A DNA stretch of 64,000 nucleotides from an uncultured Gammaproteobacteria bacterium (lineage in GTDB: Bacteria; Pseudomonadota; Gammaproteobacteria; UBA6186; Azoamicaceae). The stretch spans positions 612,921 to 676,920 of the forward strand of contig CAWDVG010000001.1 of assembly GCA_963805795.1 (NCBI GenBank), written 5' to 3'. The notes under the pieces are model-generated. The model saw only the letters and a program-made list of their open reading frames with translations. It did no database searches and had not been told where the DNA came from. Positions 23,132-26,235 of this stretch are shown piece after piece; position 1 is the stretch's first letter, and every line of letters starts with the position of its first letter. Position numbers and translations under genes: made by a program.

Positions 23132-24538
23132 CTATTTTTTCGCGATTGTAGCTTTGGTAGTGCTTGCAGCGGTTGCAGTAGCTGTTCCGGAAAGAACAGT
23201 GGCAGTTCCCGCAGCTGCAGTCGCTGTTCCTGTCATACCTGCATCATGAGTACTCGCAGTTCCTGCAGCCGCCGTTGCGGTTGCTGTTTCCGAGAGTTTC
23301 GAATTTGCATTCCCAATAGAAAAATCAAAAAGTTGTAATAGGGTACGTTGTTTAGAGTTGTTTTGTTCTACTGAGCTCTCCGATAATACGGGCTCTTGCC
23401 CTTTATGAGAAACATTGGATAATTGTTCAAAATAATCCTGTGCTACTTTTACATCCTTTTTCATCTTGGCTAATAACATATCATAATATAAATAAGAGGT
23501 AACAATTGAAAGAACTTGAGGGTCATAATTTTGATTATTGAGCATAAAATTTTGTAATTCGTTTGCCACGGTTGAGATCCACAATGCAACTCTTTGCAAT
23601 CGCTCTTTAGATAGAGGTATTAGATGGTCATTATATTTATCATCTTCATTAGGGGCCAATTCTATGCCCTGTGCCCAGTTTGTTATAAAGTTAAAAAAGG
23701 GATGTGGAATAGAGTTTTTTGCTATAGGTTCTAAATAATAACGAAACCTCCAGCCTTCTATATTTGCCTTTTGAGCAACACAGGAACCGACATTAAATGT
23801 AAAATTCATGTAATAACGATGGCCTTGAATTAATCTAAAATAACCTTCTAATGTTCGATTACTATTGTTTTCATTTGGAGCTTGTTTTGGAACAAAACCT
23901 AAAGCATTCGGATTGCCATTTTCCGAATAATTACGTATAGTAATATTGCTCGTAATAAACTCAGGGTTCAGGGACCATTCCTTTTCGTTTATTGCATCCA
24001 TAAATGTTGGATTAAAAACATTTAATGGCGGATTAACCTTATCTATTGGCGGATTAACATAATTTAACATGACACGTTCTTTATATTCAATTGATATCTC
24101 ACCGAATCCCATACCTGCATTAAATGTTGTTGATTGTGGCAGCACTAGAACCTTTAGGCTAATACGCCACGTCGCATCTTTGGTCGGGGTATTAGTATTG
24201 CGAGGGCACAATATTACTACCATATTTAAGGGTTCGCCATATTTTAGGTAGTCTCCACCCTCTAGTTTTTCTGGCTTATTCTCGGGTGAAAACTTATTCA
24301 TCCAATTCCAATCAGGAATAAAAGTTATTGTTATAGTCACAGGAATGGGGAGGGGGCCGTGTACCTGTGAAGGACTAATACGTGCCACTGGTGGATTAAT
24401 AGGGGTAGGCATTGAAACAGTAGCGGTAGCGGTTGCTGTTTGCAGTCTTGCAAGTTGGGCTAAACGGCCGGCTGGCGCAGTTGGAGTCGTTCTGTTAACT
24501 GAGACTGCATTACTAATACTATTAGATGACATGGACAT
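23132..24538 (-). CDS. Unknown-function protein, paralogue A (Ala/Thr-rich termini)
   Basis: 468-codon ORF with a strong SD (AAGGGGGA) before the ATG. It shares several collinear blocks with the neighbouring 497-aa ORF: TFxPDWNW, DYLKYGxP, EGYFRxIQxHxYYMNFTF, TNWAxGxEL, IVTxYLY and LLQLFDxSIG. Confidence 0.7.
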   Translation of the reverse strand: MSMSSNSISNAVSVNRTTPTAPAGRLAQLARLQTATATATVSMPTPINPPVARISPSQVHGPLPIPVTITITFIPDWNWMNKFSPENKPEKLEGGDYLKYGEPLNMVVILCPRNTNTPTKDATWRISLKVLVLPQSTTFNAGMGFGEISIEYKERVMLNYVNPPIDKVNPPLNVFNPTFMDAINEKEWSLNPEFITSNITIRNYSENGNPNALGFVPKQAPNENNSNRTLEGYFRLIQGHRYYMNFTFNVGSCVAQKANIEGWRFRYYLEPIAKNSIPHPFFNFITNWAQGIELAPNEDDKYNDHLIPLSKERLQRVALWISTVANELQNFMLNNQNYDPQVLSIVTSYLYYDMLLAKMKKDVKVAQDYFEQLSNVSHKGQEPVLSESSVEQNNSKQRTLLQLFDFSIGNANSKLSETATATAAAGTASTHDAGMTGTATAAAGTATVLSGTATATAASTTKATIAKK

Positions 24539-24663
24539 TTATTATTCCCCCTTATTAGATAAGATTTATACATATTTATACATTAAATGTAACACGATAC
24601 TTTAATGCTGAACACCAGATACTAATACCGGCGTAGCTATAAAGTCAACTTTCTAAATTCTTA

Positions 24664-24698
24664 AGATCTCCCGACCGATAGTCGGGAAAGATTCTTCT
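24664..24698. repeat. Dispersed small repeat, family 2 (copy 2, inverted); may act as terminator of paralogue B
   Basis: The tcccgac cgata gtcggga hairpin has flanks matching 7478-7507 in reverse complement. It lies about 45 bp downstream of the stop of the 497-aa gene. Confidence 0.5.
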
Positions 24699-24741
24699 TT
24701 CTATGCTTAGCAACGAGTTCCAATACTATATTTCCCGCTAA

Positions 24742-26235
24742 TTAAAATGAACTCCTGGTTTTGACAACTGCAGTCGTGGTAGCAGTTTCAACATGTCCAG
24801 CAGTAGCGGCAGCAACAAAAGCCGCTGTGGGCTGTTTTGGATTTTTTATTCCAATTGAAAGATCAAAAAGTTGCAACATGGAACGTTTGTTTGGATTTTT
24901 TTGCTGTAAAGACATATTTGAAGATGCCTCATCATCCCTTTCCTTTGTTGAATTCCTTATTAGTTTATGAAAATCATTTTCAATTTTTGAATTATTTTTT
25001 ATCATGTTCATTAAACGTTGAGGGTATAGGTAGGAAGTAATAATTTTGAAAGCTTCGGATGTAGAATTAGCAGGGCCTAATAAGAAATTATTTAATGTTT
25101 CTTCTAAACTTGGGATAGACGATGATATTTCTTCTAAGGTTTGTTGATCATTCATTATCCTCATTGATCTTCGTTGTATTCCACACAATATAGATTCCGA
25201 ATATAGATAAGCTGTAACGATCCCAAAGACCTTAGGTTCATAACTGTCTTCAGAATTTAGCATACCATTTTGTAATATTTCTACCATGGTTGAGATGGAT
25301 AATACAATTTCATTTAATGTTTTTTCATCTGTCTCATCATATTCATCTCCCGGTAGCTCCACCCCTGGTGCCCAATTTGTAACAAAGTTGGTAAATAATC
25401 TACTATTTGTAGTAGAGCAGCAGCAGAAACCTCGTGATCGTATGTAAATCATCTGTCGCCACGAGTGTAAACCAACTAGCTTGGCAATGTTAGAACCTTT
25501 ATCAAATGTAAAATTCATATAATAATGGTGGTCTTGAATAAATCTAAAATATCCTTCTTTTGTTTGATATCTATTACTTTCACTGGGACTTTGATCCTGG
25601 GCATAGCATAATGCATTGGGATCTTCCTCTTCTGAATAAGGGCGAACGGTAACGGATATAGTTTTCTTATCATCATTTTTACTTACCCTCCAGGATTTTT
25701 GCAAAAGCGCATCTTCAAATCGTGGATTAAATCCATTTGCGGAACGTATCAATGCACGCTCCGCATTAAGATTAATGGAATGTTCATGCGATGCTTTATT
25801 TGTGGGGGTTTTAGAATTAGGTAGAACAAAAGCTTTTATGCTAATACTCCAATCTGCATGCTGTGGCAAAGTGTATGCCGGACCGAATATCACTATCATC
25901 TCTACAGGTCTACCATATTTTAAGTAATCTTCAGGTTTTTGATTGTTTGGGTTGTAAGTTGCTTGAGGAGGAAGCATGTCAACCCAATTCCAATCAGGAA
26001 CAAATGTGAGCGTAATCGTTTTAAGATCAGGAAGAAGTCCAATTTCAGGCTTGGCCGCTTGGGTAATCGTCTCTGAAGATGTTTTTGTAGCTGTTGCAGT
26101 TGCACCTGCATTAGAGCCAGCCGTTGTCGCCGCAGGTACTGAAGCATCAGCGATGGTTTTATTAACTTGCTCACTCATATTGCTTGATGGGGTTGCCATA
26201 GGTACCGCGTCTCGTTGGTGTAAATGTGGTTTCAT
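24742..26235 (-). CDS. Unknown-function protein, paralogue B (Ala/Thr-rich termini)
   Basis: 497-codon ORF collinear with paralogue A (see its shared blocks). The true start may be the internal Met (MATPSSNMSEQVNK), which aligns with the paralogue A N-terminus. Confidence 0.7.
   Translation of the reverse strand: MKPHLHQRDAVPMATPSSNMSEQVNKTIADASVPAATTAGSNAGATATATKTSSETITQAAKPEIGLLPDLKTITLTFVPDWNWVDMLPPQATYNPNNQKPEDYLKYGRPVEMIVIFGPAYTLPQHADWSISIKAFVLPNSKTPTNKASHEHSINLNAERALIRSANGFNPRFEDALLQKSWRVSKNDDKKTISVTVRPYSEEEDPNALCYAQDQSPSESNRYQTKEGYFRFIQDHHYYMNFTFDKGSNIAKLVGLHSWRQMIYIRSRGFCCCSTTNSRLFTNFVTNWAPGVELPGDEYDETDEKTLNEIVLSISTMVEILQNGMLNSEDSYEPKVFGIVTAYLYSESILCGIQRRSMRIMNDQQTLEEISSSIPSLEETLNNFLLGPANSTSEAFKIITSYLYPQRLMNMIKNNSKIENDFHKLIRNSTKERDDEASSNMSLQQKNPNKRSMLQLFDLSIGIKNPKQPTAAFVAAATAGHVETATTTAVVKTRSSF

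Follow-up and report, generated by a model that had tools for sequence, protein, structure and literature searches.

A tandem gene pair in an uncultured gammaproteobacterium carries a domain shared with giant-virus-like and eukaryotic sequences and may encode host-directed proteins

Two adjacent genes, here called A and B, lie in a 64,000-nucleotide stretch of DNA (the window; positions 612,921 to 676,920 of contig CAWDVG010000001.1, assembly GCA_963805795.1) from an uncultured bacterium of the Gammaproteobacteria. The sequence comparisons given below leave us almost certain that the proteins they encode belong to a family that crosses the kingdoms and is defined by a beta-rich N-terminal domain, the N-module. 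The wider reading, that A and B are horizontally acquired proteins directed at a host, has in our judgement about an even chance of being right. The two open reading frames (ORFs) and their parts are located as follows (pLDDT, predicted local distance difference test).

23132..24538, minus strand: gene A, intact ORF, 468 residues
24742..26235, minus strand: gene B, intact ORF, 497 residues; paralogue of A, in tandem with it and upstream, on the same strand
24359..24538, minus strand: leader of A, residues 1-60, rich in Ala, Thr, Ser and Pro, disordered (pLDDT <50, composition)
26041..26235, minus strand: leader of B, residues 1-65, rich in Ala, Thr and Ser (composition)
23639..24358, minus strand: N-module of A, residues 61-300, beta-rich (HMMER, family alignment, AlphaFold2)
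25321..26040, minus strand: N-module of B, residues 66-305 (HMMER, family alignment)
23408..23608, minus strand: helical unit of A, residues 311-377, containing IVTSYLY; three predicted helices, pLDDT 60-82
25141..25320, minus strand: helical unit 1 of B, residues 306-365, containing IVTAYLY (local alignments)
24940..25140, minus strand: helical unit 2 of B, residues 366-432, containing IITSYLY; internal duplication (local alignments)
23312..23341, minus strand: LLQLFDFSIG of A, with the B copy MLQLFDLSIG at 24850-24879; kept between the paralogues only
23135..23293, minus strand: tail of A, residues 416-468, Ala/Thr-rich (64% Ala+Thr), disordered
24745..24834, minus strand: tail of B, residues 468-497, rich in Ala, Thr and Val

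The two proteins align with 33% identity over 416 columns (BLASTP, E = 2e-63), which is far beyond chance, and the tandem paralogy proposed for them in an initial annotation of this DNA thus stands. Proteins identical to A and B (P0001 and P0002, respectively) are both encoded on one contig of 1,754,671 bp. Each protein is built from five parts in the same order, beginning with an Ala/Thr-rich leader and ending with an Ala/Thr-rich tail. The sequence blocks quoted in the initial annotation are all present: A has ITITFIPDWNW, DYLKYGEP and LLQLFDFSIG where B has ITLTFVPDWNW, DYLKYGRP and MLQLFDLSIG, and both have EGYFR(L/F)IQ(G/D)H(R/H)YYMNFTF and TNWA(Q/P)G(I/V)EL. One detail had to be amended: the motif IVTSYLY occurs once in A and IVTAYLY once in B, and the second copy in B, given earlier as another IVT motif, reads IITSYLY. 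The pair was recovered base for base in an independent short-read contig (L001, run ERR11523672). This contig reaches from the last part of rpoE across both genes of the pair into the first part of lepA and shows 100% identity to the window over 3,457 bp, the pair and its flanks included, so that the genes are not an artefact of assembly.

The composition of the protein ends is extreme, as had been claimed. Among 36 ORFs examined in the window A and B have the highest Ala+Thr content at the C-terminus (0.67 and 0.50 of the last 30 residues, against at most 0.33 in the other 34). Over the same 30 residues the combined fraction of Ala, Gly, Ser and Thr is 0.80 in A and 0.60 in B, and Glu occurs once in B (position -15) and nowhere in A. 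The N-termini are polar and disordered. We detected no N-terminal hydrophobic segment and no stretch of transmembrane grade in either protein with Kyte-Doolittle windows of 19 residues, the maxima (0.87 at position 440 of A, 1.26 at position 336 of B) lying far from the N-terminus. By hydropathy, therefore, neither protein has the signal peptide or transmembrane helix of a Sec/Tat-exported or membrane protein, in agreement with the earlier statement that a signal peptide is missing.

The family was found by an exhaustive hmmsearch of 1.84 billion cluster representatives, with a profile of the two conserved cores as the query. The search returned 48 hits with E <= 1e-3; 35 of these have E <= 1e-10, and 8 have E <= 1e-30. 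Beyond A and B there are 46 further clusters at 50% identity, the best with E = 2.5e-40, and every relative matches profile positions 1 to ~250 only. When a hidden Markov model (HMM) of the module was compared reciprocally with the pair it scored 268 bits for B and 214 bits for A, and six-frame translations of independent contigs gave 214-346 bits. An alignment of 25 sequences (A, B and 23 relatives) is collinear from KTITITF(V/I)PDW through YYxNxTFxxGS to FTNFxTNWAxGxE. Five of its columns are invariant and eight nearly so, and A and B keep all of them; the invariant residues are the T of KTITITF, the Y, T and F of YYxNxTF, and L153, and R95, N185, S192, W228 and E233 are among the near-invariant ones. 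Two insertions within the module were also located.

24230..24253, minus strand: DYLKYGEP of A, within an insertion of ~17 residues; the B copy, DYLKYGRP, is at 25906-25929
24008..24058, minus strand: VNPPIDKVNPPLNVFNP, loop insertion of A with two VNPP repeats (family alignment, pLDDT)

The ~17-residue insertion is private to A and B, as 21 of the 23 relatives have no residues in columns 33-49 of the alignment and the remaining two carry unrelated sequence; judged from this alignment, it counts as a shared derived character of the two proteins. The element VNPPIDKVNPPLNVFNP is absent from B and from all aligned relatives, which bears out its earlier description as a repeat-containing feature of A only, and it is modelled as a low-confidence loop (pLDDT block 56).

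Other searches with the same proteins were nearly empty. A word-indexed search of 5.8 billion proteins with A as the query returned only P0001 and P0002, and such searches with the family alignment and with the relative P0043 returned the queries or a single relative only. We attribute these results to an index that misses this family, since the relatives surfaced only in the exhaustive HMMER search. When GTDB species-representative genomes were scanned with motifs of the pair, patterns that proved too specific, nothing matched, and a scan of IMG/VR gave no confirmed match. Pfam and NCBIfam yielded nothing above noise for A and B (exonuclease VII small subunit, E 0.04; PsbQ, E 0.11). When the module alignment was scanned against Pfam member by member at E <= 1, no two members matched the same family, and PDB sequences gave nothing with either protein or with the family profile (best matches tendamistat, E 0.32, and a phosphoprotein, E 0.24). 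The initial annotation had assigned no known domain and had regarded the pair as defining an unrecognised family. The first point was confirmed by these searches. The second holds in that no curated library matches the pair, and fails in that the module belongs to a wider family of 46 further clusters. Profile searches might, as that annotation had also allowed, have placed both proteins in a well-characterised family; the one to which they led is itself uncharacterised.

Structure prediction and comparison had likewise been suggested as a check. AlphaFold2, run with the family alignment, gave a confident and mostly beta model of the N-module (pLDDT 87.9; predicted template modelling score, 0.87). 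Foldseek detected no PDB fold neighbour of the module model (best E 0.22, template modelling score, TM, <= 0.2) and none of the full-length model (best E 0.087, TM <= 0.2), the top PDB matches being assorted beta-sandwich proteins without any pattern. The library of viral predicted structures, BFVD, contained exactly one match, the Solumvirus protein A0A3G5AGJ0 (AYV86346.1, Solumvirus5_13, P0012 in our set), with E = 1.5e-19, TM 0.74 and a root-mean-square deviation of 3.7 over 252 columns.

The architecture of the relatives points to eukaryotic cells. A BIR domain (PF00653, E 1e-3 to 5e-7) was detected at the C-terminus of 10 of the 20 relatives scanned (P0004, P0006, P0007, P0008, P0009, P0016, P0018, P0019, P0025 and P0031), and it is preceded by a conserved helical middle region, LSAxNQLxGWQHV ... 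FMKEAE..VTEML. The module of P0047 is joined to a eukaryote-type protein kinase, and P0021 has two modules in one protein. P0006 and P0017 end in CCVIL, a CaaX-like terminus that resembles a CaaX-type prenylation motif. Low-complexity linkers rich in Gln (poly-Q) or in Ser and Gly are found in some relatives, and in many the module is preceded by an Ala/Ser/Thr/Pro-rich leader like those of A and B.

Members of the family were found in genomes of very different kinds. One copy (L082) is eukaryotic: it is interrupted by three introns with GT...AG or GTAAG...AG boundaries, and their excision restores the conserved frame. Members from giant viruses, or from contigs that look viral by their gene content, are Solumvirus, L086, L087, L088, L090 and JGI 3300047160. 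The virus-like contigs are gene-dense and consist of nearly nothing except ORFans, with RING-finger genes in L088 and L090, and JGI 3300047160, which is 18.5 kb long, carries two tandem BIR genes. L090 (GCA_035666015.1, DASSAG010000017.1), which bears the member HZZ98486.1, was deposited as part of a 'Candidatus Saccharimonadia' metagenome-assembled genome (MAG). Besides that member it contains ORFans and a RING-finger gene and is without bacterial markers, and on this gene content it is probably a mis-binned giant-virus contig. A further contig, L085 (Logan SRR21360382), has two intronless tandem members of 654 and 1165 residues (296-5831, plus strand), both ending in CCVIL.

Bacterial contigs also carry the module. 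On ERZ26867466 ctg28218, a bacterial contig of 2.8 Mb, P0043 and the BIR-bearing P0025 lie ~50 kb apart (L083 10001-11749 and L084 10001-11908) in a region with many IS elements, with IS66 and DDE transposases and with DsbD, LysR, outer-membrane beta-barrel, cyclin-domain and protein-kinase genes around them; the member without BIR on this contig has a C-terminal domain that also occurs in P0035 and the kinase fusion P0047. Another bacterial contig (L089; ENA ERZ25039475 contig_621) contains five tandem N-module genes (4291-16998, plus strand), bordered by EamA and by SpoU/IscS/IscA/ParA. Most of these genes have a C-terminal BIR and Ala/Thr/Ser-rich tails, and one or two are split by frameshifts. 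Tails rich in Ala, Ser and Thr are carried by P0004 (giant-virus-like) and P0008 as well. The family is nowhere described in the literature searched, which links BIR neither to Legionellales nor to Berkiella, and searches combining BIR with giant viruses likewise gave no description of such a family. BIR-domain proteins of bacteria are absent from that literature as well.

The C-terminal halves of A and B are particular to this genome as far as the exhaustive hmmsearch and hhalign reach, since neither found relatives of them elsewhere. In the full-length model of A residues 1-60 are disordered, 61-300 form the module, 311-377 form three helices of moderate confidence and 378-468 are again disordered. 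The helical unit, ~55-65 residues long, is present in a single copy in A and is repeated within B (local alignment score 77). No BIR was detected by Pfam in A or B at E <= 1. We also considered the C-terminal halves as degenerate forms of the middle and BIR regions of the relatives; this was rejected, as hhalign against the post-module alignment of the relatives gave a probability of 0.2-0.4%.

In an unrooted neighbour-joining tree A and B group as sisters (bootstrap 100%) and nest among BIR-bearing sequences on viral-looking contigs, with weak support at depth; P0033, P0043 and P0047 form a separate clade. The sister relationship, together with the private 17-residue insertion, argues for one acquisition followed by tandem duplication. 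The dN/dS comparison of the paralogues that had been proposed as a check gave values that are rough because of saturated dS: 0.19-0.28 in the module, as against 0.65-0.69 in the C-terminal half. YN00 was unusable owing to the saturation, and the values are those of NG86 and LWL85. As far as such estimates go, the module is under purifying selection. Synonymous divergence itself is lower in the C-terminal half (dS 0.63-0.77; 23294-23638, 108 codons) than in the N-module (1.8-2.7; 23639-24358), and in so small a sample this could stem from gene conversion or from 3' halves that were exchanged at a later time. The GC content at third codon positions (GC3) is 0.29 in A and 0.27 in B, compared with 0.31 in housekeeping genes, and the codon usage of A falls inside the range of host genes and that of B just above it.

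The pair occupies the interval between rpoE and lepA, and the borders of this slot are given below.

22388..22966, plus strand: rpoE, left border of the slot (context)
26403..28180, plus strand: lepA, bordering the slot on the right, with four or more frameshifts (context)

These two genes are linked and co-oriented in all 67 loci (67/67) with enough flank. The gap between them is 3.4 kb in the window and has a median of 3.2 kb elsewhere (range 1.9-5.6 kb), and the pair lies on the strand opposite to rpoE. In Berkiella MAGs the slot (L005 10072-13867; L007 10585-13478) holds rseA, whose product matches RseA_N, an unknown gene and a gene for a DegP/MucD protease. With the size of the gap unchanged and its usual content swapped, the pair represents a replacement in a variable slot and not a plain insertion; the initial annotation, which had placed an insertion within conserved synteny, was right about the synteny and not about the insertion, as the interval is not lengthened. 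With rseA and mucD lost, the slot has become a place where cargo particular to each lineage is exchanged. In the nearest relative, MAG RBC072 (L002), it contains an unrelated 477-residue protein and a SnoaL-LuxR regulator; the slot protein was considered as a homologue of the pair and rejected (E = 0.23). RBC072 is 76% identical to our organism in RpoE and 58-64% in other housekeeping proteins, and Berkiella comes next for LepB only (48-52%). No anti-sigma gene adjoins rpoE in the window (22966-26403) or in RBC072. On the other side of rpoE, a gene with three Mito_carr repeats (20759-21730, minus strand) is inserted between ygfX/cptA and rpoE, where RBC072 has a gap of ~150-200 bp. This mitochondrial-carrier gene means that rpoE is flanked on both sides by lineage-specific cargo of eukaryotic type.

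The genome had been described as encoding further eukaryote-like proteins, and those found in the window (the mitochondrial carrier and ankyrin, Sel1-repeat and Fic proteins) agree with that description. Candidate host-interaction genes besides the pair are listed here.

32988-34031, plus strand: Fic-domain protein
52892-54187 and 60867-61772, plus strand: two ORFs without Pfam match
54423-58028, plus strand: ankyrin-repeat protein of 1201 residues
58404-60614, minus strand: Sel1-repeat protein of 736 residues

The right end of the window (53-64 kb) falls to 31-35% GC. Within the 64 kb the genes ppsA, lepA, nrdA and nrdB are broken, and the pair and the ankyrin, Sel1, carrier and Fic genes are intact. 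The lepA gene is split over frames 3/1/2/3/2/1, in comparison with the intact LepA of RBC072, and looks like a pseudogene. The contig L001 equals the window up to 26437; within 26438-26987 the two are set apart by 22 substitutions together with 2 single-base indels, the first difference falling ~35 bp into lepA; the lepA of L001 is intact for 209 residues. These differences indicate two lepA variants in the sample, from two strains or from a second copy. The genes nrdA and nrdB (class Ia ribonucleotide reductase; 46752-50830, plus strand), which are normally essential, are reduced to many short ORFs in different frames, which implies another ribonucleotide reductase or a supply of deoxynucleotides from the host. 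The phosphoenolpyruvate synthase gene ppsA (1868-4284, plus strand) is truncated to an ORF of 366 residues that matches model positions 4-342 of 798, and further ppsA fragments appear downstream of it. LepB (28206-29324, plus strand) has 372 residues, compared with 273 in RBC072, and bears a low-complexity C-terminal extension of ~100 residues rich in Lys, Ser, Thr, Glu and Asn that overlaps the start of rnc. No tRNA genes and no Rfam matches at the gathering threshold were found in the window (1-64000).

Gene A has a strong Shine-Dalgarno sequence, AAGGGGGA, upstream; no obvious ribosome-binding site was seen for B. Two further elements lie between the genes.

24667..24689, minus strand: stem-loop in the gap from B to A, predicted to form 10 base pairs (dG -14.4 kcal/mol)
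24619..24648, minus strand: promoter-like TTGACT-18-TAGTAT upstream of A (weak evidence)

The stem-loop is a possible terminator of B; it lacks a clear T-run, and a consensus terminator scan did not call it. The promoter scan as a whole was at chance level (14 sites, 13.6 expected).

We propose the following course of events. The bacterium would have acquired the module once, by horizontal transfer from a pool of eukaryotes and giant viruses; the acquired gene would then have been duplicated in tandem, and the pair would now sit in the rpoE-lepA slot that lost rseA and mucD. Import of the module is rather probable on the sequence evidence: the BIR domain, CaaX end, protein kinase and poly-Q linkers of its relatives are eukaryote-directed, one copy bears introns, and the nearest neighbours look viral. 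Since the module, with bacterial relatives that carry a BIR, has no obvious role inside a bacterium, A and B may act in a host, and action there would require export. For export followed by action in the host, judged from gene content, we put the chance slightly below even. The proteins would most plausibly reach the host cell by a type IV system, if the genome encodes one, and the module would there bind the partner of the BIR-bearing family members. Lacking a BIR, A and B could be decoys, or adaptors that uncouple this partner from the BIR-dependent output; of the steps proposed, a decoy or adaptor mechanism is the most doubtful. The type IVB secretion system is conserved across Legionellales sensu lato, and its effectors turn over rapidly (PMC8896642). 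The earlier suggestion that the pair might be secreted effectors is plausible from the relatives, whose domains or motifs would have no sense outside a eukaryotic cell.

Several observations weigh against the proposal that A and B are acquired, host-directed proteins. No secretion-system gene, dot/icm included, was found in the 64-kb window of the 1.75-Mb contig, which makes the type IV route an assumption. The tails offer no help on this point, as they are common to the bacterial proteins of L089, to P0004 and to P0008 and hence are not readable as a Dot/Icm or other bacterial secretion signal. Neither Foldseek against the PDB nor Pfam yielded a ligand, catalytic motif or fold analogue for the module, and the Solumvirus match compares two predicted models of homologues and is therefore no independent evidence for the fold. 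Both the middle region and the BIR that accompany the module in its relatives are missing from A and B, where its role would have to be played without them. The direction of transfer is weakly backed, since deep nodes of the tree have bootstrap values of 38-63%. Genomic context was examined for ten relative loci, with viral class taken from gene content alone. With dS of 1.8-2.7, the dN/dS values of the module are rough. Finally, the organism has no close relative among those sampled (58-76% identity to MAG RBC072), and its membership of the Legionellales is putative.

Of the other explanations, the one that survives best is that A and B are remnants of transferred DNA, neither expressed nor of use any more and on their way to being lost. 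It is suggested by the decaying genome, with four broken housekeeping genes in 64 kb, the adjoining lepA among them, and by the C-terminal dN/dS of 0.65-0.69, the lack of an obvious ribosome-binding site at B and a promoter scan at chance. We consider it improbable: the ORFs of 468 and 497 codons are unbroken next to a lepA with at least four frameshifts, the module has a dN/dS of 0.19-0.28 and keeps all family-invariant residues, a strong Shine-Dalgarno sequence precedes A, and the pair is the same in two assemblies, with polymorphism in the sample 200 bp away.

The module might instead be bacterial in origin and work in the bacterium, for example in place of RseA/RseB/MucD, the lost partners of sigma-E in envelope stress, with viruses and eukaryotes acquiring it secondarily. 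The pair does sit at the exact position of rseA and mucD in the Berkiella MAGs, the module occurs in three bacterial genomes, and the tree is unrooted and weakly resolved. RseA is membrane-anchored, however, and A and B have no membrane segment, no RseA_N or other Pfam match and the opposite orientation to rpoE, and the nearest genome has unrelated genes in the slot. Relatives with BIR domains, poly-Q or Ser/Gly-rich linkers, CaaX ends, a kinase fusion and spliceosomal introns, and tree neighbours of A and B on virus-like contigs, further reduce this explanation to a small chance. A chance just as small attaches to the idea that the pair is aimed at giant viruses, as a decoy of a viral N-module/BIR protein in a co-infected protist. 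The nearest neighbours in the tree and the sole structural match are viral or virus-like, and the module is kept and the BIR absent, as in a dominant-negative protein; this idea is purely inferential, however, the eukaryotic copy makes a host target equally possible, and no defence-related genes neighbour the pair.

That A and B are an orphan, lineage-specific family fits the empty word-indexed search of 5.8 billion proteins, the empty GTDB motif scan and the C-terminal halves without relatives, and is very improbable for the proteins as a whole in view of the 46 clusters reaching E = 2.5e-40, the collinear alignment, the HMM scores of 214-346 bits and the TM of 0.74; it is refuted for A 61-300 and B 66-305 and stands only for the C-terminal halves. 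Least likely of all, to the point of being negligible, is eukaryotic or viral DNA misjoined during assembly or present as contamination, to which an otherwise viral or eukaryotic domain and more than one lepA variant in the sample might point, given that GC, GC3 and codon usage match host genes, syntenic bacterial genes lie on both sides, and L001 runs from the end of rpoE to the start of lepA at 100% over 3,457 bp.

The proposal that the pair was acquired and is directed at a host can be set beside known systems. Solumvirus5_13 and its metagenomic relatives share with A and B a homologous module (28-36% identity), its predicted fold and invariant residues, and the Ala/Ser/Thr/Pro-rich leader; they differ in having the middle region (NQLxGWQHV, FMKEAE) and a C-terminal BIR, whereas A and B have a private helical unit, LQLFDxSIG and the 17-residue insertion. 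The IAP and other BIR proteins (PF00653; survivin, viral and cellular IAPs) are akin to the pair by association, BIR being the usual fusion partner of the module, although A and B have none. The domains that precede the C-terminal BIR of the relatives are not known from characterised IAPs. Dot/Icm effectors of Legionella and Coxiella include the ankyrin/F-box protein AnkB with its CaaX end, the LegK kinases and the mitochondrial carrier LncP, and their C-terminal signal is a tail in which small and polar residues abound and a Glu-rich block is common. The pair resembles them in being a foreign domain of eukaryotic or viral type in a host-associated gammaproteobacterium, without a Sec signal, in its paralogue expansion and in its position in a variable slot near eukaryote-like genes (carrier, Ank, Sel1, Fic). 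In contrast to those effectors, the N-module has no Pfam model and falls outside the catalogued eukaryote-like domains. Likeness to the rseA-rseB-mucD/degP cluster is positional only, in the chromosomal site between rpoE and lepA; A and B are on the opposite strand and have no RseA_N (PF03872), membrane anchor or protease domain.

Host-associated bacteria are known to borrow eukaryotic domains, and the finding would be a further case, in which a bacterium restricted to a host has a domain derived from a host or a virus; its mechanism is putative, and it is not a new kind of system. What is new here is a domain that has no Pfam model, recognisable fold or literature and that links bacteria, giant viruses and a protist by way of BIR proteins. 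A bolder and unlikely version of the proposal would make the N-module an undescribed fold and a host-targeting domain traded among giant viruses, protists and intracellular bacteria; proteins combining module and BIR would manipulate a BIR-dependent process of the host, in cell division or death, and the pair, lacking BIR, would be a dominant-negative or decoy against the host or a giant virus. If what we infer for the family holds, annotation would gain a new domain family, BIR-domain proteins would be known from bacteria (the literature searched does not link them to organisms of the Legionellales type), and there would be a case of three-way gene traffic between virus, host and symbiont. 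The pair also illustrates what a decaying symbiont genome retains, as its borrowed genes are intact and lepA, nrdAB and ppsA are broken.

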